Positions 1-18,444 are shown, counted from the first letter of the stretch. The stretch is 64,000 nucleotides of DNA from a bacterium (GCA_037446635.1 JBBIIG010000004.1:18943-82942); one strand, 5' to 3'. The notes: generated from the sequence alone by a model not told the origin. Program-made: numbers and translations.

Positions 1-1298
1 TTGATCTCGATGTTTTCCACCACCGCCTCGATGATGAAATCCATGGGCGTGAAGCCGGAGTAATCGGTAGTGCCAGAGATGAGCGACATTTTGCGCTGCA
101 TTTCGCGGCGGCTCATTTTTTTCTTTTCAACCGATTCCAGAAAAATCTGCTCGGCCTTTCGCAGCCCGAGGTTGACCATCTCCTGATGGATGTCTTTCAT
201 CCGTGACGGGATGTCGTTGTAGGCTAACAATTGCGCGATGCCGCCGCCCATGACGCCGGCGCCGAGGATGCCCACCTGCCGAATTTCGCGCGGGTGCACT
301 TTCGCTTTCTCGACGCCCGGATCTTTTTTCAGCGCCTCGGTGAGGAAGAATAGCGAGACGAGATTTTTGCAGACCTCGCCCGCGATCAGTTCTCCGAGGA
401 GTTTGGCTTCAATCTCCAACCCCTGTTCCAGCGGCAACCCGATGCCGCGCTGCACCGCCTCCAGCGCTTTGAGCGGCGCGGGATAGTGTCCGCGCGTCGT
501 CTTCAATGTTTGCTTGCGCGCCTGCTCGAAAATGAATTTGCGGCCGAAGCGGTTGCTTTCCAAAAAAATCCCGTGCAGCCGTTTGGCGTTGCGCTTTTGC
601 AGATACGCGCCGCGCTTGAAATTTTGCAACATCGCCAGCCCGAATTCTTCGGCGGCGGCTTTCATAAATGAAAACGGATAATCGGGCGGCAGCACTTTAT
701 CGACGAGGCCCATTTTGCTCGCGGTTCGTGCGTCCACCAAGTTGCCAGTGAGGATGAGTTTCAACGCGCGCTGAATGCCAATGAGCCGCGGCAGGCGCTG
801 GGTGCCGCCGAAGCCGGGGAGGATGCCTAACTTCACTTCGGGCAAACCGATTTTAGTTTTGGAGCTGATGCGCGCGATGCGGAAGTGACACGCCAGCGCC
901 AGTTCCAGTCCGCCGCCAACGCACGCGCCCTGAATGGCCGCCACCACGGGAAACGGCAAGTCGTGGATTTTTTGGAAAATCGTCTGACCCTGCCGCGCCT
1001 TTTCCGCGCCCTCGTTGGGATCGCTGATGTCGCGGATTTCGGAGACGTCGGCGCCGGCGATGAAGTTGTCCTCTTTGCCGCTGAGGAACACCAGCGCTTT
1101 GATGTCGCTGCGGCGAGCGAGGCCATCGAGCCAACCGTCCAGCTCCGCCATCACTTTGCTGGAAAGAATGTTGACCTTCTCGTTTTTGAGATCGAAAATG
1201 AGAAACGCGACGCCGTTGTCGCGCACTTCGAGATTAAACGCGCCGCCGCGTTTGGCGGTTTTCTGAGCAGGCATTTTTTCGGCAAGTGTCTCGGACAT
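1..1298 (-). CDS. Fatty-acid oxidation multifunctional enzyme (N-terminal enoyl-CoA hydratase + 3-hydroxyacyl-CoA dehydrogenase). The gene runs off the window start (3' end missing)
   Basis: Minus-strand frame is open to position 1. ATG at 1298..1296 is preceded by a GGGAGGA SD. The N-terminus has a crotonase fold ([40 protein letters not shown]). [14 protein letters not shown] Rossmann motif is encoded near 250..290. Confidence 0.85.
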
Positions 1299-1320
1299 TG
1301 TGGTTCCTCCCTTATCCTTC

Positions 1321-1500
1321 AAAATTGATTTGCTTTTCACGCAATTTCACATAAAATGTCATTTCGAGGTCGACGTTGTTTGTCGGCTGAGAAATCTGGC
1401 GGTGAACAGATCATAATTGCTTCCAACAGCCTGCGAGGCATTCGCTGAATCTTTCCTCCGTCAGGTTTCTGGACTCGCTAGCGCTCGCTCGAAACGACAG
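1321..1500. repeat. Imperfect direct repeat, copy A. It is a decayed 3' remnant of a GIY-YIG gene copy and shares an 18-nt exact match with the intact gene
   Basis: 1325..1342 TTGATTTGCTTTTCACGC is identical to 1584..1601 inside the GIY-YIG CDS. The minus-strand translation reads ..LEMTFYVKLREKQINF, like the ..FEMTEDV..AREKQIKRW tail of the intact copy. It shares GAGAAATCTGGCGGTG and GGTTTCT(G/C)GACTCGCTAGCGCTCGCTCGAAACGACA with copy B. Confidence 0.6.
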
Positions 1501-1504
1501 TCCC

Positions 1505-1792
1505 TTAGATCCCATAATACAAATCCCGCCACTGCGGATTTATTGACTCAATCAGCGCGATTTTCTTTTCGCGTCGCCAGCGTTTGATTTGCTTTTCACG
1601 CGCTATCGCACTCAAAACGTCTTCCGTCATTTCGAAATAAACCAGCTTTTTGATTTTGTATTGTTTGGTAAACCCATCAACAAATTCTTCTTTGTGTTGC
1701 CAGACTCTTTTCTTGAGATCACTGGTCACACCCACATAGAGCGTCTTGGTCAAACTCGAAAGAATGTAAACGAAATATTGCTTGCTCTGCAT
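1505..1792 (-). CDS. GIY-YIG nuclease superfamily protein (small, URI-domain only)
   Basis: 95 aa: YFVYILSS...LYVGVTSDLKKRVWQH. The GIY/YIG motifs, ~95-aa length and low GC are typical of multicopy GIY-YIG genes. Confidence 0.8.
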   Translation of the reverse strand: MQSKQYFVYILSSLTKTLYVGVTSDLKKRVWQHKEEFVDGFTKQYKIKKLVYFEMTEDVLSAIAREKQIKRWRREKKIALIESINPQWRDLYYGI

Positions 1793-1805
1793 TAAGACTG
1801 TTCCC

Positions 1806-1965
1806 GGAAAATGTCATTTCGAACGCGACGCTTTTTGTCGCGTGAGAAATCTGGCGGTGCACCGATCTTTGATCTACGCAATCACGCTTGTGCGAAATCG
1901 TTGCTTCTATTCTCCAACAGGTTTCTCGACTCGCTAGCGCTCGCTCGAAACGACAACTCGAGTTA
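1806..1965. repeat. Imperfect direct repeat, copy B, a decayed GIY-YIG-associated remnant
   Basis: AAATGTCATTTCGA, GAGAAATCTGGCGGTG and CTCGCTAGCGCTCGCTCGAAACGACA are shared with copy A. The minus translation again contains FEMTF. Confidence 0.55.
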
Positions 1966-2120
1966 GTTTTTCCTCAACCCACTAACAAAAATCTCCGCAA
2001 TCTGATTGGCGGATTCTTCCAAATCGTAACAGCCATTTTTCAGCAGCACCCAGTGAGTGGTAATTTCATCCAGCGCGCCGAAGAGAGCGCGCTTCGCCAG
2101 CTCATACTCGGTCAGGTTCT
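1963..2120 (-). pseudogene. C-terminal fragment of a TetR-family gene (paralogous to the 3' end of the intact tetR at 2823..3437)
   Basis: 1969..2103 is about 88% identical to 2864..3003. The minus strand encodes ..LAKRALFGALDEITTHWVLLKNGCYDLEESANQIAEIFVSGLRKN* versus ..LAKRALFGALDEIATHWVLLKNGRYDLEESANQIAEIFVGGL of the intact gene. There is no N-terminal HTH. Confidence 0.6.
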
Positions 2121-2140
2121 CAACTCCGCTTCGCCGCGTT

Positions 2141-2494
2141 TCATTTTGTTTTTATCAAACCCGACATCTCAAGCACGCGCTGTGACCACTCGTGCGACTT
2201 CGCGATGAACTGCTCTCGCCAGTTTTTATCCAGCCATTGCGTTTGAGATTGTCTCTGCCATTGAGCCATTTGTATTTGTAGGCTGACTAATTGCGCCGCA
2301 TCCGCAATTGCCAATTCAGCCGCAATCCATTCAATGAACCATTTGCTTTCCTGCAAAATCGCGAATACCACTTCGCGATGATCATCGTTTTTCGAGAAGC
2401 TGGCAACGCGGGCTAAATTTGCTGCCAGCCCGCCGAGGCGCACCGGGACGGGGTCGCACAAATAGCGCGAGCGGAGTTTATCCAATTTTGTCAT
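2141..2494 (-). CDS. Hypothetical protein (117 aa), second gene of a translationally coupled pair
   Basis: Long ORF. Its ATG overlaps the upstream stop (ATGA at 2491..2494). No recognisable motif. Confidence 0.55.
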   Translation of the reverse strand: MTKLDKLRSRYLCDPVPVRLGGLAANLARVASFSKNDDHREVVFAILQESKWFIEWIAAELAIADAAQLVSLQIQMAQWQRQSQTQWLDKNWREQFIAKSHEWSQRVLEMSGLIKTK

Positions 2495-2826
2495 ACGCCC
2501 TCCAAAAGCTGTTTCACTATTGCTTCCACTCTCTGCTTAATTGACGGGTCTTGTATGGTCATCGCCAGGTTGTTTCGATTGGGACGAATATTGATAAGGG
2601 CTTCAAACTCTACTGTCTGGGTGGCAGGAATCCAATTGGCTCCCCAAATATCTTCCTGCTGACTCCCATCGTCAAGCAGGATCGTTTCACAATCAGCGTG
2701 CATAACACCGCCGCCCGCCAAAATCTGACGATTTAAATCGACCGCCAACTTAATGATGGGATCCAATTCTTCGAGCATTTCGTCAACCTGCTGTTTTGTG
2801 GCCTTACTTCGAATGATATGTATCAC
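2491..2826 (-). CDS. Hypothetical protein (111 aa). It has a ..LAGGGVMHADCETILLDDGSQQEDIWGANWIP.. core and may belong to a DUF family (name uncertain)
   Basis: The GTG start (2826..2824) overlaps the TGA stop of tetR (2823..2825), so it is translationally coupled to tetR. Confidence 0.55.
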   Translation of the reverse strand: MIHIIRSKATKQQVDEMLEELDPIIKLAVDLNRQILAGGGVMHADCETILLDDGSQQEDIWGANWIPATQTVEFEALINIRPNRNNLAMTIQDPSIKQRVEAIVKQLLEGV

Positions 2827-3437
2827 GGAAGTAACCTTGCGTTTTGATCATTGAAACCCGGTCTTAGCCCACCAACAAAAATCTCCGCAATCTGATTGGC
2901 CGACTCTTCCAAATCGTACCGGCCATTTTTCAGCAGCACCCAGTGGGTGGCAATTTCATCCAGTGCGCCAAAAAGGGCACGCTTCGCCAGTCCGGGGTGA
3001 ATGTCACTGCGGAAGAGTCCCTCGCGCTGGCCCTGCTCGATCAAATTTCCCACGAGATTTAAATACTCTTTCAGCTTCGAACCGCTGTATTCTTTGATGA
3101 AACGATTGCTCTGCCGCAGCTCTAATTGAAACACCTGCGCCAGCTTGGGATTTTGTTTCACGAATCGCAAATGCGCGTGAATGTACTTGCGCACTTTGGC
3201 AATCAGGTCGGTTTCGGCCGCTATTTCCTCCTGCACTTCGGCAATGAATTTCCCCAGCTCCTCCTCAAAAATGGAGATGAGAATTTCGTCTTTATTTTTG
3301 AAATAGAGATAAATGGTGCCGTCCGCCACGCCCGCGCGTTTGGCGATTTCCGAAACCTTGGCGTGATAAAAGCCCTTTTGGGCAAACACCTTGACGGCGG
3401 ATTTGAGAATGCGAGTACGCTTGTCTTTTGTGGGCAT
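2823..3437 (-). CDS. TetR/AcrR-family transcriptional repressor, likely a FadR(YsiA)-type regulator of fatty-acid degradation
   Basis: N-terminal HTH: RTRILKSAVKVFAQKGFYHAKVSEIAKRAGVADGTIYLYFKNKDEIL. A TGAATGA-N4-TCATTCA palindrome sits 50 nt upstream. It lies on the same strand as, and upstream of, the fadJ-like gene. The ATG at 3437 is preferred over the GTG at 3506, which lies inside the operator. Confidence 0.8.
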   Translation of the reverse strand: MPTKDKRTRILKSAVKVFAQKGFYHAKVSEIAKRAGVADGTIYLYFKNKDEILISIFEEELGKFIAEVQEEIAAETDLIAKVRKYIHAHLRFVKQNPKLAQVFQLELRQSNRFIKEYSGSKLKEYLNLVGNLIEQGQREGLFRSDIHPGLAKRALFGALDEIATHWVLLKNGRYDLEESANQIAEIFVGGLRPGFNDQNARLLP

Positions 3438-3487
3438 CGTCCGTGAAAAGTTTGAGTTTGAAAACACAGAGAGACTGCAACAGCAAC

Positions 3488-3505
3488 TGAATGATGATTC
3501 ATTCA
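3488..3505. promoter_or_regulatory. Putative FadR-box operator TGAATGAtgatTCATTCA
   Basis: Perfect 7-bp inverted half-sites, 50 nt upstream of the tetR ATG. They match the Bacillus FadR/YsiA box half-sites TGAATGA/TCATTCA. Confidence 0.55.
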
Positions 3506-3648
3506 CAAAATAAAAAAATGATGCTGGAATGCAAGTTATTTTTCAGCAAAAACTTTGAACCACGAATTACACGAATTGCACGAATAAAAAACGCTTGATG
3601 CTTAGGTCGAAATCCGTTATCTTGCGCCAATTCATTTTCACGAGTGTA

Positions 3649-3680
3649 GCGGAGTGCAAAGCTTAAGCTTTGCACTCCGG
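3649..3680. repeat. Palindromic element GCGGAGTGCAAAGCTT|AAGCTTTGCACTCCGG. It shares termini with the element at 23623..23699
   Basis: 14-15-bp perfect stem, 30 nt upstream of the M28 peptidase start. Confidence 0.6.
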
Positions 3681-3711
3681 GCGTTAAGCAAATAAAACCC
3701 GGAGGGAGAAA

Positions 3712-5820
3712 ATGCGCATACGGCTTTGCCTATTTTTGTTGCTGACTTACGTTATCTCGGTCAATGCCCAATCCATAAGCGGATTCACCGCCAATTCCGC
3801 CGTCACTCAAAAACAACTCGAAGAAAAATTTCTCGCGCTGCCGCGGCCGGAGAACGCGGAAAAATATTTATTCAAACTCACCGAAGAGCCGCACATCGCC
3901 GGCAGTCCGGAAAGCAAAGCGGTGGCGGAATACATTAATTCAAAATATCTCGAATGGGGACTTGACTCAAAGCTGGTGGAGTATCACGTCTATCTCCCCT
4001 ATCCGAAATCGGTGCAAGTGAAAATGCTGGCGCCAGACACCGTCGCGCTGAATTTGGTGGAAGACTCGTGGCGATTCGACAAAGACAGTTATGACTCCCA
4101 CGCGGTGACGGCCTTCAACGCGTATTCACCGTCAGGCGATGTGACGGCGCAGGTGGTGTACGTCAATCGCGGGCTGCCGGATGATTACGAAGCGCTGGCG
4201 GAATTGGGCGTCGAAGTGCGCGGCAAAATTGCGCTGGCGCGCTACGGCGGCAGCTTCCGCGGCGTGAAAGCGCAAGTGGCGGAGGAACACGGTGCCGCGG
4301 GACTCATCATCTACTCCGATCCCGCGGACGACGGTTACATGCGCGGCGACATTTATCCCAACGGGCCGATGCGCCCAGAGAATGCCATCCAGCGCGGAAG
4401 TCTGCTCTACATTTTCAACTACCCCGGCGATCCACTGACGCCCGGCTTTGCATCCATCAAAACTGCCAAGCGCCTCAAAGCCGAAGAAGCCCGCAGCATC
4501 ACAAAAACGCCGACGACGCCGATTTCATACAGCCAAGCGAGTCTCATTTTAAAAAGTCTCGCCGGTCCGGAAGTGCCGGAGGGCTGGCAAGGCGGGCTGC
4601 CGTTTCGGTATCATGTGGGGCCGGGGCCGGCGACCGTCCATATCAAATTGGAAATGGATTATCAAGTGCGCCCGATTTACAACGTCATCGCGGAAATCAG
4701 AGGCAGCGCGGAGCCGGACAAATTGGTGATCATCGGCAATCACCACGACGCGTGGGTGCACGGCGCGGTCGATCCCAGCAGCGGCACGGCGACGGTGATG
4801 GAAATCGGCCGCAGCTTCGGCGAGCTGCTGAAAACCGGCTGGCGGCCGAAGCGCACAATCATCCTCGCGCACTGGGATGCCGAGGAATACGGACTCATCG
4901 GTTCCACCGAGTGGGTCGAAGAAAAGAAAGCGGATCTGACGAAAAACGCGGCGCTGTACATCAACATCGACTCCGCGGTGTCCGGAAAAAATTTCGACGC
5001 CGGTGCTGTGCCCTCGCTGGATCGATTCATTCAAGAAGTCACGAAAGATGTAACCGATCCCAAAACGCAGCAAACGGTTTTTCAGCGCTGGTGGGTTAAT
5101 CAAAACAAAAAAGAATACAAGCGGCTGAAGCAAACCGTCCCCGACACCGCAGAAACCAAACTCGATCGCCTCGGCAGCGGCTCGGATTACACCGCATTTT
5201 TGCAGCACGTGGGGGTGCCGTCGCTGAGCATGGGATTCGGCGGACGCTACGGCGTTTATCATTCCATTCTCGATAATTTTTATTGGATGAAGAATTGGGG
5301 CGACCCGACGTTCGAATACCACGCGGCAATGTCGAAAATCGGCGGACTGATGGCGCTGCGTTTTGCGCAAGCGGATGTATATCCGTTCAATTATGCCGAT
5401 TACGCGGAGGCCATTGTCAAGCACTTCGAGGAATTAGAAAAATCGTTGAAGGAAAAATTTCTGAAAGTCGAAATTGATCTCACCGTTGCGAAAGACAAAG
5501 CCAACGAGTGGAAAAAAGCTTGTGAGGGCTTGAATGAGAAAGTTAAATCTGCGCTGGACTCCGGGGCCGTTCCTCCAGAATTGAATAGTTTGCTGGTGCA
5601 AATAGAGAGAGAATTGTTGGTCGAACCCGGTCTGCCCGGCCGCGACTGGTTCAAGCATCGCATTTACGCGCCGGGATTTTACACCGGCTACGCCTCGAAG
5701 CCGCTGCCGGGAATTTCGGAGCCGGCGGATAAAGCGGATTGGGAGGCGGCAAAGCGGGAGTTGGCGGTATTGATTCAAATACTGGATAAAGTTATTCAGA
5801 CTACACAAACTGAATTTTAA
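3712..5820 (+). CDS. Secreted M28-family peptidase with PA domain and transferrin-receptor-like dimerisation domain (glutamate carboxypeptidase II-like)
   Basis: Signal peptide MRIRLCLFLLLTYVISVNAQ. Zn-ligand region: HHDAWVHGAVDPSSGTATVMEIGRSF...AHWDAEEYGLIGSTEW. SD is GGAGGGAG. Confidence 0.85.
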   Translation: MRIRLCLFLLLTYVISVNAQSISGFTANSAVTQKQLEEKFLALPRPENAEKYLFKLTEEPHIAGSPESKAVAEYINSKYLEWGLDSKLVEYHVYLPYPKSVQVKMLAPDTVALNLVEDSWRFDKDSYDSHAVTAFNAYSPSGDVTAQVVYVNRGLPDDYEALAELGVEVRGKIALARYGGSFRGVKAQVAEEHGAAGLIIYSDPADDGYMRGDIYPNGPMRPENAIQRGSLLYIFNYPGDPLTPGFASIKTAKRLKAEEARSITKTPTTPISYSQASLILKSLAGPEVPEGWQGGLPFRYHVGPGPATVHIKLEMDYQVRPIYNVIAEIRGSAEPDKLVIIGNHHDAWVHGAVDPSSGTATVMEIGRSFGELLKTGWRPKRTIILAHWDAEEYGLIGSTEWVEEKKADLTKNAALYINIDSAVSGKNFDAGAVPSLDRFIQEVTKDVTDPKTQQTVFQRWWVNQNKKEYKRLKQTVPDTAETKLDRLGSGSDYTAFLQHVGVPSLSMGFGGRYGVYHSILDNFYWMKNWGDPTFEYHAAMSKIGGLMALRFAQADVYPFNYADYAEAIVKHFEELEKSLKEKFLKVEIDLTVAKDKANEWKKACEGLNEKVKSALDSGAVPPELNSLLVQIERELLVEPGLPGRDWFKHRIYAPGFYTGYASKPLPGISEPADKADWEAAKRELAVLIQILDKVIQTTQTEF

Positions 5821-6269
5821 AAATCTTTTCCCTTTTTAATTCTAGCAATACCTTGTGTCGCCTTGATGAGATGCCAGACAGTTTCTAAAAGCTCTTTATC
5901 TTTGCTCAAGTATTCGATGACCTCTTTTAAAATGTCCTCTTCCTTTTTACCGTAGTTTTTTAAATTTTCATCTCGAACTCTTAAACCAGATGCGGCGGCA
6001 GACTCGCTTAAGTATTTAGGCTGGTCGCCGCCTTCCAGCAGCCAGAGGATATTGACATTATATTTTCTCGCAAATTCGAGAATAAATGAGAGCGTTGGCA
6101 AATACTTACCGTTTTCCCACTCCGATACCGTGCCTTTACCAACATTAAATTCTTTTGCTATAATTTCTTGATTTAAATTAAGTTCTTTTCTTAGCAACCG
6201 AAACCGTTTGCCAAACTCTGTACTAAAATCCAAAATTTTTCCTCGAATATTCGATTTTTTACTTGACAT
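5817..6269 (-). CDS. XRE-family (Cro/CI-type HTH) transcriptional regulator
   Basis: LRKELNLNQEIIAKEFNVGKGTVSEWENGKYLP HTH. Low-GC gene at the island edge. Confidence 0.75.
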   Translation of the reverse strand: MSSKKSNIRGKILDFSTEFGKRFRLLRKELNLNQEIIAKEFNVGKGTVSEWENGKYLPTLSFILEFARKYNVNILWLLEGGDQPKYLSESAAASGLRVRDENLKNYGKKEEDILKEVIEYLSKDKELLETVWHLIKATQGIARIKKGKDF

Positions 6270-6373
6270 TCTCGGAATAACGAATTATATGCAATTGAAA
6301 AAAGCCTAATGTATTCTCACAAATTAATATAAAAAGGCTTTCCAGAATGTCAACATAAAATCAGGAGGGGAAG

Positions 6374-6673
6374 ATGGCAACCGAAGCAACCATCATTAAA
6401 CAAATTGAGAAAACGGCGGCAGGTAAATATTCGGATTGGCTAATTGGCCTTACGGATGATCCGGCTGTTCGCAAAGCTCAGCTCGACAATCCGCTGAGTT
6501 TCTTGCAGTGGAAAGCGGATACTGAACGAGCAGCAAAAAATGTCGAACGTTATTTTCTCGCGAAAGGAATGCACAGCGCGGGTGCCGCCCCACAATCCGC
6601 ACTACATGTTTATATTCTGCTGGCCATTAATCCGGGCAATACCTCTTCAGGAAAGTTCTCCGCACATTTCTGA
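6374..6673 (+). CDS. Hypothetical small protein (99 aa), divergent from the XRE regulator
   Basis: Strong AGGAGGGG SD 6 nt upstream of the ATG. No recognisable motif. Confidence 0.55.
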   Translation: MATEATIIKQIEKTAAGKYSDWLIGLTDDPAVRKAQLDNPLSFLQWKADTERAAKNVERYFLAKGMHSAGAAPQSALHVYILLAINPGNTSSGKFSAHF

Positions 6674-6733
6674 CCTACGGTGTTAATTTTCCTTCAAATC
6701 TGAGAGAACATCCCCTTCAAAATTGTCTATGTA

Positions 6734-7525
6734 TTGCCAAGGGGAATCTCTCTGATGTCCAAACCAAAACTGCTTATCTATTCTGAGCAACTGGCCAATT
6801 GTAGCTGCTTTCACACTGTCTTTAACACCAAATTTGAAGCAGAGGTGACATACCAGGAAACGCATTTCTTAAAAAAGATTCAGGAAGAAAACGTTGATAC
6901 GGCGGTGGTCTGTTTCTGCTCCGCCCAAGAAAAAGATGTGGAGCGATTGCTGCGGCTGGACGCCCTCACCGGCCCGGTGCCGGTGCTCACTTGTTCCCGA
7001 ACCCTAAATGCCGATTTTGTTCAGATGGGAGCCAAGCAAGGGGTGGATCGCTTTCTACAGTGTACCATGGAAGCTGAAAAAATTCATGACCTCATTTTCG
7101 AAGCCATTCGCCGCGGCGGTTTGAAGGAATATCTGAAATCGTGCACCCCCGGTAGCCTCGAGGCTTCTCCTTACGTGCGGAAAATGGTAGACGAAATCAT
7201 TCATGCTTTTCCCCATCGGCTGAAAGCGGAAGAATTGGCCGAACGGCTGGGCATAACCCGCCGCTGACTGCATAAAATTTGCAGACAAGCCTTCGGTAAA
7301 CCTTTCTCCCTGGTCATGCGCCGTATCTGGGTTCATCAGGCTTTGCGAATGATGCAGCATACCAACCTCGATAACACGGAAATTGCTCTGCAGCTCAATT
7401 ACAGTGAGGAGAGCAACCTGGCTCGTGATTTCCGCAGCGAACTGGGTTATAGCCCCACCGAAGCACGCCGAAGGCTTATCCAACACACCCCAGAAGAGTT
7501 ACTCATTCCCAAGAATAGTCCTTAA
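6734..7525 (+). pseudogene. AraC-family regulator (degenerate receiver-like N-domain + AraC HTH) interrupted by an in-frame TGA at 7265..7267
   Basis: ORF 6734..7267 ends ..AEELAERLGITRR*. The same frame continues LHKICRQAFGKPFSLVMRRIWVHQALRMMQHTNLDNTEIALQLNYSEESNLARDFRSELGYSPTEARRR, the AraC HTH signature. The ORF track splits it into 177-aa and 69-aa pieces. Confidence 0.65.
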
Positions 7526-7754
7526 ACAATGATTCCTTTCGACTATTTCTGGTCTCCCACTCTCCTTTTCACTCTTTCTCGTTTCACTTTTCACCTCTCA
7601 CGTTTCACCTGAAAATCACTTCCCATTTTGAACGAAAAGTTCCCATTTTGATTTGACGGAAAGAACATTTTTTAGTATTTTTGTTTAGTTTTCAGTTTAA
7701 AATAAGGTTAAATAAGGTAAATAATTACAGAGAATAGATTGCGAGGCAAGCCTG

Positions 7755-8702
7755 ATGCAGATTATTCCATCTATCACTCTTATCTTTTTGTTTTGCTTTA
7801 CAATCGGCTGTAAGGAAGAGGATTTTTCGGTGAATATCCCAATCAATCGGCCGACACGCAATTATGGTGAGCCGGCATGGGGACCGTCAGATTGGATTAT
7901 GTTTTCTCATACTCCGTATGATGCGTCAGGTCAACCAGTGGATTCTTCCGGGTTATGGCTGGTTCATCCTGATGGTACGGGAAGACGGCCTTTTACACTT
8001 TTACGAGAAGTCCGTGACTTTGCAGCACCTGATTGGTCACCAGATGGAAAATGGATTGCAGCACATCAAGATGGCCAAATCTACAAAATTTCGGTTGAGA
8101 AGGACAGCTTGGTACAACTGACATTCCCTTCATTACGAAAATTTTATCCCACTTGGAACCCGGATGGTAAATGGATAGCATTTTCAATTACCGATGGTGA
8201 CCATAGTCAATGGGGCATCTGGGCTGTTAGAAGCGATGGTCTGGAGATGCGTCACCTCCGGCGAGTCGATGGCTTGAACCCCGACTGGTCGCCAGATGGT
8301 CAACGAATTGTTTTCCCTGGATGGCCAGAAGGCACCCAGAAGCAAAAGCTAATGATCATGGATGCAACCGGAGAAAATCTGAAGGTCGTTTTTGACCCCG
8401 CTCGGTATGGATTTAATTTTACCTGGAACGTTGACCATCCGCAGTTTTCTCCGGATGGCGCAAAAATCGTGTTTCAAATGGGACCCGCTGAGCAGAGGGA
8501 TGGACAAATTTGGATAGTGAATACCGATGGCAGCCATCCCCGCCAGTTGACTTCGGACGGGGGGCTGGAGCCCTCATGGAGTCCCGACAGCAGACAGATA
8601 GTTTATGTTAAGTTTTCAACCCGCCATGCTGAGCAAACAGGAAATGGCAAGCTGTGGATAATGGATGCCGAAGGTGGTAATAAGCGGCAGTTGACGTTCT
8701 AA
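7755..8702 (+). CDS. Lipoprotein with TolB-like/PD40 beta-propeller repeats
   Basis: Signal peptide plus lipobox (LFCFTIGC). Repeated DWSPDGKWIA / TWNPDGKWIAF / DWSPDGQRIVF / FSPDGAKIVF / SWSPDSRQIVY blades. Confidence 0.8.
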   Translation: MQIIPSITLIFLFCFTIGCKEEDFSVNIPINRPTRNYGEPAWGPSDWIMFSHTPYDASGQPVDSSGLWLVHPDGTGRRPFTLLREVRDFAAPDWSPDGKWIAAHQDGQIYKISVEKDSLVQLTFPSLRKFYPTWNPDGKWIAFSITDGDHSQWGIWAVRSDGLEMRHLRRVDGLNPDWSPDGQRIVFPGWPEGTQKQKLMIMDATGENLKVVFDPARYGFNFTWNVDHPQFSPDGAKIVFQMGPAEQRDGQIWIVNTDGSHPRQLTSDGGLEPSWSPDSRQIVYVKFSTRHAEQTGNGKLWIMDAEGGNKRQLTF

Positions 8703-8725
8703 ATTAAAACTCTCGTAATCAAAAA

Positions 8726-8765
8726 AGGCGTATCGGCCACCCGCCAAGGTATTTCCGATACGCCT
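8726..8765. terminator. Hairpin with 11-bp perfect stem (AGGCGTATCGG..CCGATACGCCT) preceded by an A6 run. Possible bidirectional terminator
   Basis: Read directly. The T-run is on the minus strand only, so its function as a plus-strand terminator is uncertain. Confidence 0.35.
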
Positions 8766-8975
8766 GTGAAATCGACAAAAGAAGCAAGGAGTTTAGGCTT
8801 TTTATTTCGGCCCATACGCCCTCTTTGTCTTGGGAAAGTTATGAATTAAAATGAAAAAGTCAATCAAAAATTTGTCGACACAGTTCATTTCCTTATCCCT
8901 CCGGTTTTACATAATTGCGATAGGAGAAAGAACTATCTGACAATTATCCAATTACTTAAAAAGGAGGATGCAAAC

Positions 8976-11276
8976 ATGCAGTGCAGAACCAATATCACTG
9001 TGTGGAAGGTCTTGTTTACCTTCCTGGTTCTTTCGATGGTCGTTTTTTCTAAAAAAACACTAGCCCAAGAAAATATAGATAATCAGATCGTGGTCATGTT
9101 CAAATCAGGCATAGTAAGCCTTCCCGATGGCCGCGATCGAGCGAATCTGGACGAGGCCACGCTTCCAACTCCACTTCGGACTTTACTAAAAGCCTTTGAT
9201 GCCCAGGAAATTGCAAAGGGAATCCCGGAATTCCAGCGTTCAGACACCTTACGCGTTCTACCAGATGGCCGATTGTTTAAGGTACCGGACTATACGAACC
9301 TGTTTGTCATTACATTGCCCACAGGATTACAACGAGAGGCATTGGTAGATTCCTTGGTGCGGTTCCCAATCGTGGTCAGTGCCGAAAAAAACCAGAGGGC
9401 CATTTTGCGGGAGACCATTCCCAATGATACACACTTCCAGGCCCGCCAATGGAATTTGAAAAACACGGGTCAATTTGGCGGCACGCCGGGCGCCGACGTC
9501 AAAGCAACTTTTGCGTGGGATATTACCAAAGGCAGTACTTCCGTTATCTTGGGTATTTTAGATTACGGAATACAATCAGGACATCTTGATTTGCAGGGCA
9601 AGGTTAGCGGTGACGCTGGTTATAGTGTTTCTCACGGAACCCATGTAGCGGGCATTGCTGGCGCACTTACAAATAACAACCGAGGCGTTGCCGGCGTAGA
9701 TTGGAATGCTCAGTTGGTTTCGCAACGAATAGATTTAGGCGGCATCCCAGAAATAGCACAGGCCGTCAACGATGCAGTAGCGGCAGGCGCACGGGTGTTG
9801 AACAATAGCTGGGGATTGCCAAGTTATTCTACGGTACTTTACAATGCGTTTCTATCCGCTTACCAAGCCGATGTCCTCTCCACTGTGGCCAATCCCGAAA
9901 CCGGCGCTACAGGTGAATTTCCAAACAGTTTCGGTACCTGGATTATGAATGTTGCTGCTACGACTAATGGAGATGCAAAAGCCAGCTATTCCTTCGATCG
10001 CAACTATACTGATGTTGGTGCACCTGGCGGCAATGCCGATGGAGTCTTAGAACGCAATATTTATTCTACAATTCCGGACAACACCTATGGTTATATGGCT
10101 GGCACTTCCATGGCTACTCCACACGTAACCGGCATTGCAGGACTATTGCTGGCCATCAATCCCAACCTGCACAATTATGATCTGGAGTGGATCATCAAAC
10201 GCTCTGCCAACGATATACCGCCTACGGGTCGAGACCCTAGCACCGGTTACGGTCGAGTTAACGCGTACGAGGCGGTGCGACATGTGGCTGCCCCGTATCA
10301 GATCACCCACGGCAATGCCACGTTGACGAAAACAAATAACAATATTCAGGTAACATTCTTAGCGCCACCGTTGCCGGAACTAGCGGCGGGGACTTACTGG
10401 GTAGATCGTTGGCAATTAGAAGCTGTTGTTAATTTCAATCCTATTTATTCTCAAACTCCATGGGCGTGGCTGAGCCAAACCGGCTATTCAGCAGCCAACC
10501 CCAACGATGCAAAAGAATACATGTATGAAAACTCCACGACATCTTCGACTACCATTAGAACCTTTTTCTATTATATAAGAACAAATCTCTTAGGACAAAC
10601 AATCAACAAATGGGCGCCGATGGATCCGAATATTTTATCTCGTCAATATGCTGTGTTAGGCACTCCGGCACCTCTGGCCGTCACCATCACCGGCCCGACC
10701 TCGCTGGGATACAAACAATCCGGCACGTGGACGGCCAATGCCTCCGGCGGCACGGGTTCGTACACTTACGAATGGCGGTTTCGTTACAATGGCACCGGCC
10801 CCTGGTCCAGTGTGGTGGGCACATCTCAAACCTATACCCGCACCATGTTAGACACCGATTTTGAGCTGCAGGTTAAGGTAACCAGTGGCGGTCAGAGTGT
10901 CTATGACACCCATTACGTTGATTACGGAGTGGCTAAAGAAGGCGTTGCTGATTCTGATGTGACGGTTCAAATCCCAGAACAATTTGCACTACATCAGAAT
11001 TATCCGAATCCGTTTAACCCGACTACCGAAATCAAATTTGAATTGCCAGAAAATGGCTACGTCACTGTAAGCATCTTTAACGCGGTGGGCCAAAGAATTC
11101 GTACTCTGGTAGATGAGCCCAAGACCGCCGGTTATCACAGCGTCGTCTGGGACAGCAAAGATGAGTCTGGTCACGAGGTGGCTTCGGGAGTGTATCTCTA
11201 CCGTATCTATGTCAGACCCGCTAATGCCAGCGGCCAACCATTCAAAGCGGTCAAAAAAATGACGCTTCTGCGATAG
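8976..11276 (+). CDS. Secreted subtilisin-like serine protease (peptidase S8) with T9SS C-terminal sorting domain
   Basis: Catalytic triad contexts: ILDYGIQSGHLDL (Asp), HGTHVAGIAGA (His), GTSMATPHVTGIAGLL (Ser). C-terminus LHQNYPNPFNPTTEIKFELPENGYVTVSIFNAVGQRIRTL...GVYLYRI. SD is AAGGAGG. Confidence 0.88.
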   Translation: MQCRTNITVWKVLFTFLVLSMVVFSKKTLAQENIDNQIVVMFKSGIVSLPDGRDRANLDEATLPTPLRTLLKAFDAQEIAKGIPEFQRSDTLRVLPDGRLFKVPDYTNLFVITLPTGLQREALVDSLVRFPIVVSAEKNQRAILRETIPNDTHFQARQWNLKNTGQFGGTPGADVKATFAWDITKGSTSVILGILDYGIQSGHLDLQGKVSGDAGYSVSHGTHVAGIAGALTNNNRGVAGVDWNAQLVSQRIDLGGIPEIAQAVNDAVAAGARVLNNSWGLPSYSTVLYNAFLSAYQADVLSTVANPETGATGEFPNSFGTWIMNVAATTNGDAKASYSFDRNYTDVGAPGGNADGVLERNIYSTIPDNTYGYMAGTSMATPHVTGIAGLLLAINPNLHNYDLEWIIKRSANDIPPTGRDPSTGYGRVNAYEAVRHVAAPYQITHGNATLTKTNNNIQVTFLAPPLPELAAGTYWVDRWQLEAVVNFNPIYSQTPWAWLSQTGYSAANPNDAKEYMYENSTTSSTTIRTFFYYIRTNLLGQTINKWAPMDPNILSRQYAVLGTPAPLAVTITGPTSLGYKQSGTWTANASGGTGSYTYEWRFRYNGTGPWSSVVGTSQTYTRTMLDTDFELQVKVTSGGQSVYDTHYVDYGVAKEGVADSDVTVQIPEQFALHQNYPNPFNPTTEIKFELPENGYVTVSIFNAVGQRIRTLVDEPKTAGYHSVVWDSKDESGHEVASGVYLYRIYVRPANASGQPFKAVKKMTLLR

Positions 11277-18128: not shown

Positions 18129-18444
18129 TTTTAATCTCCGACAAATAATTTCTGAGATAATTTTCCCATGATAGTTTCAAATCCGAAAGGGCATAATTAA
18201 ATGCTTCATTGAAAGTAATAAAATACAAAGCTTGTTTACTTTGAGAACCATCGGGATGCAGTATATCTCGATGAGCAAAACTGTGCGCTGTATCATACCT
18301 GACGATTGGAATCCAAGTTTCATTAATTTCCGACTCATATTGAACGACAAAACTCAAGATTTGGCCGCTCTCTTTGAATGCTCTCACGCGAATGCGATGC
18401 CGCCCATCCGGAGTAAGATCGAACAAGAACGATAATTCATTCAC
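18121..18444 (-). CDS. Hypothetical small protein (107 aa) with an ..RIRVRAF..IVRYDTAHSFAHRDILHPDG.. motif (resembles a DUF/TA-associated family; name uncertain)
   Basis: Low-GC two-gene insert between accC and meaB. Confidence 0.5.
   Translation of the reverse strand: MNELSFLFDLTPDGRHRIRVRAFKESGQILSFVVQYESEINETWIPIVRYDTAHSFAHRDILHPDGSQSKQALYFITFNEAFNYALSDLKLSWENYLRNYLSEIKND

Follow-up and report, generated by a model that had tools for sequence, protein, structure and literature searches.

In Escherichia coli K-12 the icd gene, which is the target of the prophage e14 and also of phage 21, runs intact into the inserted DNA, and its displaced C-terminal end lies as a pseudogene, icdC, at the far side of the insert. 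Most differences between the two copies are synonymous, and if the copies recombined with each other, one chimeric gene would be restored (PMC13626634). Here we analyse a locus with the same outline in a stretch of 64,000 nucleotides of bacterial DNA (GCA_037446635.1, JBBIIG010000004.1:18943-82942; this whole stretch is called the window). In the window an operon made up of tetR, coding for a Bacillus-type FadR repressor of the TetR family, and a fadJ-like gene is split by about 1.5 kb of DNA. The tetR gene runs intact into a two-gene cassette (a DUF5674 gene and a partner coding for 117 amino acids, aa), and a displaced fragment of a tetR 3' end, copy A, lies at the far side of the cassette; its likeness to the corresponding block in the intact gene, copy B, recalls that between icdC and icd. 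The differences from e14 are that the prophage is 15 kb long and carries an integrase and a defined att core, whereas the insert in the window is 0.9 kb and has no recombinase. Also, the far junction in the window is found inside a repeat element, and the end of the intact gene is a novel tail of 13 codons and not a faithful replacement.

Another group of systems with displaced gene ends is formed by the effector-immunity arrays of the type VI secretion system in Vibrio cholerae and the orphan 3' ends of Rhs and contact-dependent inhibition genes, which have been attributed to homology-facilitated illegitimate recombination, HFIR (PMC5361080). In those arrays as in the window there is a conserved upstream anchor, the other end is illegitimate, and the old downstream part is shifted to give orphan 3' fragments, recurrently and in a strain-variable way. 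The modules in the window are, however, not effector-immunity pairs, the anchor is a metabolic repressor gene, and duplicates occur on either side of the insertion hot spot, of the tetR 3' end in the window and of the fadJ 5' end in two related loci (L171 and L172). The minimal mobile elements of Neisseria are variable small cassettes without mobility genes which lie between conserved genes and are presumed to be moved by recombination in the flanks. They share with the present site that variable cassettes are found at one conserved gene pair; the inserts described here differ in leaving diverged duplicates of gene ends and in sitting inside a repressor-target operon.

The reading which we propose is that nested selfish DNA has split a fadR-fadJ operon and that recombination between alleles took place at a block in the 3' part of tetR. 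From the comparison of sequences given below we consider it probable, though well short of certain.

Relatives of the locus were found by scanning representative genomes and metagenomes with the TetR protein, which gave many KSB1/Calditrichota-like loci; the lineage is uncultured. In the loci L001-L012, L018 and L092-L095 tetR and fadJ are adjacent, 40-230 nt apart with nothing between them, and a divergent M28 peptidase gene precedes tetR. Altogether the two genes are neighbours behind a single conserved box in at least 19 related loci. Exactly one perfect FadR box is present 54-166 nt upstream of tetR in all 19 relatives that were checked, and none of the 19 has a box between tetR and fadJ. 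It follows from the adjacency and the single box that the 1.5 kb in the window is an insertion into an ancestral fadR(tetR)-fadJ operon; the ancestral adjacency is established by these syntenic loci, and the box indicates that the operon was autoregulated. A first reading of the window, made from its sequence only (the sequence-only reading), had supposed that the two genes, lying on the same strand, were once neighbours, and the relatives bear this out.

The assignment of the repressor rests on several features. The protein scores 214.1 bits against the NCBIfam model NF053878 (Bacillus-type FadR equivalog, cutoff 200) and matches Pfam TetR_N (E = 4e-17) and TetR_C_4 (E = 4e-31). Its TetR helix-turn-helix (HTH) is thus accompanied by a YsiA-like C-terminal domain, a palindromic box is present in its own promoter, and fadJ lies downstream; the fadJ-like product has the Pfam domains ECH_1 and 3HCDH_N, and FadJ/FadB are its best NCBIfam matches. 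The box in the window matches the operator crystallised with FadR of B. halodurans, GATGAATGAATACTCATTCAT (PMC5397183). The sequence-only reading had placed a FadR box in front of tetR, and this site is the sole zero-mismatch occurrence of TGAATGA-N4-TCATTCA in the 64 kb; there is no second one at zero mismatches before fadJ or inside the insert. As no box precedes fadJ in the relatives or in the window, fadJ in the window is separated from its only recognisable operator, just as had been suggested. An imperfect FadR-box-like site with two mismatches, AGAACGATAATTCATTCA, was seen at 18426-18443; it may mark another member of the regulon, and sites at this level of match are no more frequent than expected by chance.

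The closest relative, L089 (TetR 94% identical in amino acids), has the order tetR, repeat, frameshifted GIY-YIG gene, repeat, fadJ, and it lacks the DUF5674 pair as well as the tetR fragment. In L172/L173 the order is tetR, repeat, repeat, GIY-YIG gene (intact, 91% aa identity), repeat, repeat, fadJ, again without cassette and tetR fragment. In L171, whose tetR is about 90% identical in nucleotides, two repeats are directly adjacent and there is no GIY-YIG gene at the repeat-repeat junction. Among the compared loci only the window has the DUF5674 pair and the tetR fragment together in full. Since repeats and GIY-YIG gene occupy the same site in L089 and L172/L173, they form an older, shared layer, and the DUF5674 pair with the tetR fragment is separate; at least two layers of insertion are thus evident from the comparison. 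The proposal of an integration at the tetR 3' end stands as far as the inserted 1.5 kb and the origin of the fragment from an orthologous tetR are concerned. It has to be modified in that more than one event took place, L089 and L172/L173 sharing only the repeats and the GIY-YIG gene.

The duplicated block forms a direct repeat, 1973-2100 and 2863-2990, of 128 nt which is 89% identical and ungapped. At the codon level the homology covers 43 codons, from LAKRA to GLR (1966/1972-2100 against 2856-2990). The sequence-only reading had described it as a segment of 135 bp about 88% identical to 2864-3003; the duplicate is real, and its partner is 2856-2990, so that the end assumed there overshoots by about 13 nt. 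No further copy of the block exists in the 64-kb window. The translation of copy A corresponds to the last 41 positions of the Pfam domain TetR_C_4 (E = 1.5e-5). A fusion or read-through translation of copy A can be rejected: the reading frame of the fragment is not that of the 117-aa gene, the fragment lacks a start codon from which at least 30 aa could be made, and no open reading frame of at least 30 aa covers it on the minus strand.

Of the two copies it is the displaced one which has the native end. TetR proteins at 88-94% identity (P0242, P0244 and P0361) end in IFIGGLRKN, and copy A ends in IFVSGLRKN. A run of 39 nt, leading from GGG TTG AGG AAA AAC TAA via CTCGAGT into the repeat (GGGTTGAGGAAAAACTAACTCGAGTTGTCGTTTCGAGCG), is identical in copy A, L171 and L172. 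Because both the tail and the junction to the repeat are identical in L171/L172, the comparison shows copy A to be the native tetR 3' end, still joined to its original downstream DNA. The intact gene in the window departs after GGLR into its tail of 13 codons, RPGFNDQNARLLP (2826-2855), followed by the stop, and the approximately 12 nt before the start of the cassette are homologous to the upstream flank of the cassette in L084. The tail of the intact gene is, by this comparison, a product of the insertion, made at the junction. Close relatives have at least six different tails straight after GGL (RKN, VKCAEHG, LTMPKTLAHSTK, MRNVL, SRP and LQPGRFV), and such variable residues after GGL mark a recurrent junction point.

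Two other sources for the fragment were considered and rejected. One is a tetR paralog, which the sequence-only reading had named as the finding that would undo its interpretation; there is no other copy in the window, and the tail and the downstream junction are those of the orthologous native arrangement. The other is a diversity-generating retroelement; the 14 mismatches include transitions as well as transversions and are not confined to adenines, and a reverse transcriptase is lacking.

The spacer between the cassette and copy A turned out to be informative about how the fragment was displaced. It holds a piece of the repeat element, 2103-2134, which resembles repeat b of L089 (28/32) more than it resembles the repeat next to it in the window. 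The repeat behind copy A is intact, whereas that in the spacer is truncated, and on the simplest reading an allele bearing the cassette was therefore joined to an allele free of it, which requires two alleles. This points to an exchange between strains. The tetR of L172 (5001-5588) is itself a recombinant: nt 1 to about 430 are L169-like (83-95%), and from about nt 450 it is 98-100% identical to L171. The breakpoint, nt ~430-450, coincides with the 5' edge of the block repeated in the window, and the longest stretches of identity available to such exchanges are in the conserved tetR block GATGAAATTGCCACCCACTGGGTGCTGCTGAAAAA. The joints in the window have the form expected of an HFIR product, with tetR as the homologous anchor on one side and a novel joint, from repeat position ~50 to tetR nt ~447, on the other.

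Copies A and B differ at 14 of the 126 aligned sites, and each of them differs at 12 of 126 from the L089 ortholog. With the relatives as reference about seven changes are unique to A (five synonymous) and about seven to B (six synonymous); the two non-synonymous changes in A, an A to T and an R to C, hit conserved residues. The longest identical runs between the copies are 27 and 24 nt. The excess of synonymous changes rejects a model in which both copies evolve neutrally (P ~1e-4 to 1e-3). An untranslatable fragment should evolve several times faster and without a synonymous bias, and for this reason the pattern argues that copy A spent most of its history inside a working gene, although the statistics are weak.

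Table 1. Features of the locus. Coordinates are those of the whole 64-kb window unless another locus is named; all elements of interest are on the minus strand, and the order is that of transcription.
Feature	Coordinates	Strand	Remarks
FadR box	3488-3505		TGAATGA-TGAT-TCATTCA (TGAATGATGATTCATTCA); 51 nt 5' of the tetR ATG
tetR, Bacillus-type FadR (TetR family), 204 aa	2823-3437 including stop (coding 2826-3437)	-	NF053878 and Pfam
Copy B, tetR 3' block inside the intact gene, codons LAKRA...GGLR	2856-2990	-	89% identical to 1973-2100
DUF5674 gene, 111 aa	2491-2826	-	Pfam 2.6e-33; GTG start overlaps tetR stop (GTGA)
117-aa partner gene	2141-2494	-	overlaps DUF5674 gene by 4 nt (ATGA); no family match
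Repeat-element piece (element positions ~17-50), in the 37-nt spacer between cassette and tetR fragment	2103-2134	-	28/32 identical, one gap, to L089 repeat b
Copy A, displaced tetR 3' fragment, 138 nt, ELAKRAL...SGLRKN, stop TAA 1966-1968	1966-2103	-	TetR_C_4 positions 94-133, E = 1.5e-5
Repeat element copy 2, ~150 nt, structured	1808-1956	-	covariance model 158.8 bits on minus vs 31 on plus strand
GIY-YIG gene, 95 aa, catalytic domain only	1505-1792	-	Pfam PF01541, E = 2.6e-13
Repeat element copy 1	1353-1500	-	covariance model 138.5 bits, minus strand
fadJ leader, 54 nt, with ribosome-binding site AAGGGAGG	1299-1352	-	holds exact 18-nt GIY-YIG piece
fadJ-like gene, 5' part (enoyl-CoA hydratase / 3-hydroxyacyl-CoA dehydrogenase)	1-1298	-	runs off the window; start at 1298
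Repeat copies in L089	5627-5771, 6139-6290		
Repeat copies in L171	1831-1976, 1982-2129		
Repeat copies in L172	5595-5739, 5745-5896, 6283-6422, 6482-6623		

The history which would account for these observations has the following steps. First, copies of the repeat of about 150 nt would have settled in the spacer between tetR and fadJ, and next a bare GIY-YIG gene of 95 aa would have landed cleanly between two repeats. In the second layer a promoterless module, DUF5674 plus the 117-aa gene, would have inserted at the very end of tetR and replaced about 30 nt there, from the codons KN and the stop through CTCGAGT to nt ~16 of the adjacent repeat. The insertion would thereby have created the 13-codon tail, with the new tetR stop overlapping the start codon of the cassette. 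The cassette-bearing allele would then have recombined with a cassette-free allele of a related strain, by homologous exchange in the tetR 3' block on one side and by an illegitimate joint on the far side, where repeat position ~50 was connected to tetR nt ~447 of an allele with native end and intact repeat. The recipient's own tetR 3' end, copy A, would in this way have been pushed downstream as a dead fragment. The process may have been HFIR, an unequal crossover between alleles, or the re-insertion of a circle that had been excised. From the arrangement we infer the order of events, the mechanism of recombination, the co-transcription and the action of the cassette.

It should be noted that several observations weigh against this history. 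The comparison of the copies rests on 126 aligned nucleotides only. A model with A neutral and B selected is not rejected by the synonymous excess (P = 0.17-0.29), and for the A branch taken by itself the test is marginal (P = 0.013-0.06). At three sites (65T, 107G and 119T) copies A and B agree with each other against L089, L171, L172, L175 and the L170 fragment, which fits sister copies in one lineage, or gene conversion, as well as an import from a sister strain. The predicted intermediate allele, in which tetR with the new tail is followed by the cassette and a truncated repeat with no duplicate, was not found in any collection, and all relatives are metagenome assemblies. Finally, in L170 the joint between the 117-aa gene and the tetR fragment is slightly shifted from that in the window and does not include the repeat piece; this junction could be either a recurrent event or the product of a chimeric 1.1-kb contig.

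The behaviour of the site in close relatives has to be taken into account when the alternatives are weighed. In L171 a VapB-VapC(PIN) pair (2332-2987) lies between the repeats and fadJ. It is flanked by a direct repeat of 128 nt, 2140-2267 and 3053-3180, 80% identical and 913 nt apart, which consists of the ribosome-binding site and the first 96 nt of fadJ and so is the mirror image of the tetR duplicate in the window. After the PIN gene (2990-3050) an imperfect palindrome of about 60 nt was observed, GGTAGCCGC...GCGGCTACC, with an inner GCAGGC/GCCTGC hairpin, which may serve as a terminator or as a recombination site. In L172 the GIY-YIG gene is preceded by a duplicate, 37 nt long, of the fadJ start region. 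In L090/L169 a gene for a 572-aa Zn-ribbon membrane protein, a remnant of about 25 nt of DUF5674 and the 117-aa gene are found directly before fadJ. The ENA sequence L170 (1-1094) contains, in this order, a piece of the fadJ 5' end, vapB, the 117-aa gene with 19 codons of a second fadJ start fused to it in frame, a tetR 3' fragment with a frameshift, and a repeat. Across the window and its relatives the site is thus found empty or occupied by repeats, by the GIY-YIG gene, by the DUF5674 pair, by the Zn-ribbon gene with the 117-aa gene, or by VapBC. This comparison shows hot-spot behaviour, and inserts bounded by diverged copies of flanking gene ends are typical of the site.

The alternative that survives best is a duplication in place. 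It postulates a tandem duplication of the segment from tetR nt 447 to the gene end, together with the spacer and the first ~50 nt of the repeat; the cassette would have entered the first copy, and the dead copy would have stayed coding-like through occasional gene conversion. Gene conversion readily uses direct repeats that are 890 nt apart, the sites unique to A or B form a mosaic of five runs among 14 sites which is compatible with conversion tracts, and the three nucleotides shared by A and B against the close relatives are as expected. The ratio of synonymous to non-synonymous changes does not reject one neutral and one selected copy either. Tandem duplications are, however, usually lost fast, and the close relatives at about 90% tetR identity show no trace of a duplicate. 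The repeat piece in the spacer is closer to the b repeats of L089 and L172 (28/32) than to the adjacent repeat of the window, and the dead copy is without indels and has seven unique changes, the same number as the selected one. We therefore prefer the exchange between alleles and keep duplication with conversion as a live rival, which we think unlikely. The target duplication followed by divergence that had been proposed from the sequence is not the best reading: the two copies differ from each other more than either differs from L089, the changes are equally divided between them, and the spacer is a piece of repeat.

A site-specific integration of a small, decayed element of the e14/icd type is highly unlikely. 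In this model the tetR 3' copy would have served as attP and the integrase would have been supplied in trans or since deleted. The architecture is indeed that of icd-e14-icdC, the copies share identical cores (the runs of 27 and 24 nt), and L089 resembles B at sites 26-86 but A at sites 89-125, a pattern that a reciprocal crossover near site 87 would produce; toxin-antitoxin-like modules also often outlast the decay of the rest of an element. The 890-nt unit, though, holds only the DUF5674 gene and the 117-aa gene, and neither there nor among the genes at 3.7-12.9 kb (about 9 kb beyond tetR) was any integrase or transposase domain, excisionase or other element gene found. The far junction is inside a repeat element and not at the end of an element, and other loci with the cassette lack flanking repeats of gene ends. 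Moreover, the duplicates at the hot spot differ in gene (tetR 3' or fadJ 5') and in length (37-135 nt), which one att site cannot explain. An assembly artefact, i.e. a chimeric joining of strain variants in a metagenome-assembled genome, is most improbable: all sequences are metagenome assemblies, the contigs of relatives break here (L090, L169, L174 and L175) and L170 looks partly chimeric, but the two copies, at 89% identity and with no identical run longer than 27 nt, are too diverged and too short to lead an assembler astray, the window is part of a contig of 164,858 nt, a tetR 3' fragment and a repeat come after the 117-aa gene in the independent ENA assembly L170 as well, and neither the reading frames nor the GTGA and ATGA overlaps are disrupted.

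The cassette itself is a widespread pair. As the sequence-only reading had noticed, it starts on the tetR stop, the TGA at 2823-2825 overlapping the GTG at 2824-2826. More than 3000 homologs of DUF5674 and 300 of the partner were found, the closest ones 70-79% identical (from KSB1, Zixibacteria, Calditrichota, Marinimicrobia and others). In every locus examined (L081-L088) the two genes lie side by side and overlap by the same 4 nt, in at least five unrelated contexts, among them after an RsmB gene, between the genes for a solute-binding protein and an alpha-amylase, and between the genes of an operon (L088). In L084 (1-10336) the pair is part of a co-oriented run of toxin-antitoxin-type genes (PhdYeFM, PIN, HicAB, MqsA, DUF4258 and ParE) which is interleaved with FlpD and ferredoxin/heterodisulfide-reductase-like genes, interrupting such an operon, and which resembles a cassette array. 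Long flanking repeats were rejected as a general property of DUF5674 cassettes, as there are none around the pair in L081, L082 and L084.

In being small, co-oriented, overlapping by 4 nt, portable and found among HicAB, VapBC, ParE and MqsA genes the pair is like a type II toxin-antitoxin system, and a true VapBC occupies the same hot spot in L171. It differs from these systems in that neither protein matches known toxin or antitoxin families in sequence or in fold. Nothing specific on function emerged from sequence and fold of the two proteins, the 117-aa partner being described as a helical bundle; no literature on DUF5674 was found, and look-ups of the genomic context by exact sequence had none of the window's own proteins on record. 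The cassette thus behaves as a portable, toxin-antitoxin-like selfish pair, a putative function which is suggested by its company, and its position on the tetR stop would make it translationally coupled to fadR.

The GIY-YIG gene was correctly described as low in GC and flanked by repeats: the GC content of its region is about 0.42, compared with 0.55-0.60 for fadJ and 0.48-0.52 for tetR. The match to PF01541 (50.5 bits) covers residues 5-77 of the 95, and Pfam recognises no separate DNA-binding domain in the protein. The window and L172/L173 have an intact gene at this site, L089 a frameshifted one, and L171 none at its repeat-repeat junction. In L089 (5790-6064) the gene is split into two overlapping frames (residues 1-48 and 33-92) and is probably a pseudogene. 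Free-standing homing endonuclease genes of the GIY-YIG type, e.g. the seg genes of T4, are likewise bare reading frames which are inserted cleanly and are polymorphic for presence, absence and decay; the protein in the window differs in having 95 aa and the catalytic domain only. Between repeat copy 1 and the fadJ ribosome-binding site an exact piece of GIY-YIG coding sequence of 18 nt, GCGTGAAAAGCAAATCAA, was seen (1331-1348, identical to 1590-1607), which suggests a remnant of another GIY-YIG copy. No relevant literature on associations between GIY-YIG genes and miniature inverted-repeat transposable elements (MITEs) was found.

The repeats are present in two to four copies per locus, and the two in the window (1353-1500 and 1808-1956) are about 79% identical to each other. 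They have 12-bp terminal inverted repeats, TGTCGTTTCGAG/TTCGAAATGACA. Nine copies share one consensus fold on the sense strand of the operon, and 10 of the 34 predicted pairs show compensatory changes. The predicted fold has a 12-bp closing stem, two invariant G.U pairs (which are A.C mismatches on the other strand), a 9-bp inner stem and a 3' hairpin that occurs in three fully compensatory variants, CGCGAC/GTCGCG, CCCGAT/ATCGGG and CCCCGC/GCGGGG. A covariance model gives 140-160 bits for the sense strand against 25-45 for the antisense strand. With this model there is no further full copy in the 64-kb window, and weaker relatives of the repeat are L011 15667-15773 (47 bits), L004 10621-10741 and L171 375-480. 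A known RNA family for the repeats or the spacer was rejected, as Rfam gave no match at E <= 1 in window positions 1-6000. With terminal inverted repeats, a conserved secondary structure and several copies the element has the structure of a MITE or of a REP (repetitive extragenic palindromic) element; no cognate transposase was identified.

Another variable region was noticed at 5817-11276. The M28 peptidase gene and the ThiS-ThiF-rhodanese gene, which are neighbours in L172, are separated there by about 5.6 kb of additional genes, coding for an XRE/CI-like HTH protein, an unknown protein of 177 aa, a PD40 beta-propeller protein and an S8 subtilase that has a FlgD-Ig domain.

For the expression of fadJ the arrangement would have a clear consequence. 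Neither a convincing promoter nor a convincing terminator was found inside the insert, scan counts being no higher than in shuffled controls. Since there is also no second operator, fadJ would depend for its expression solely on transcripts that start at the FadR-box promoter and read through 1.5 kb of DNA, made up of the cassette, the fragment, both structured repeats and the GIY-YIG gene.

A wider proposal, which we offer as a quite unlikely generalisation, is that small promoterless modules such as the DUF5674 pair, VapBC and the GIY-YIG gene spread without any recombinase, each of them carrying along a portable host gene end of about 40-135 nt, either the tetR 3' block or the fadJ ribosome-binding site with the first codons. 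If this were true, recombination between the flanking repeats would release a circle or fragment made up of cassette plus homology, which could re-enter the same operon in a related cell in a RecA-dependent way. Its entry would restore the host gene and provide the cassette with the transcription and translation signals of the host, and the whole would be an integrase-free, homology-guided cassette system aimed at one operon.

The locus is a further example of known genome plasticity at an unusually busy hot spot and changes no current concept. Three recurring and uncharacterised items are flagged by it: the pair of DUF5674 and the 117-aa gene, the strand-specific repeat of 150 nt absent from Rfam, and the minimal GIY-YIG genes of 95 aa. 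The series of states, i.e. empty, repeats only, GIY-YIG, VapBC and DUF5674 pair, may be used to study recombination-driven turnover of cassettes in an uncultured phylum. For the operon it would be a natural example of how cassettes colonise the gap between a repressor gene and its target without destroying either of them, the regulator being rebuilt with a new tail and its old end left behind as a fossil.

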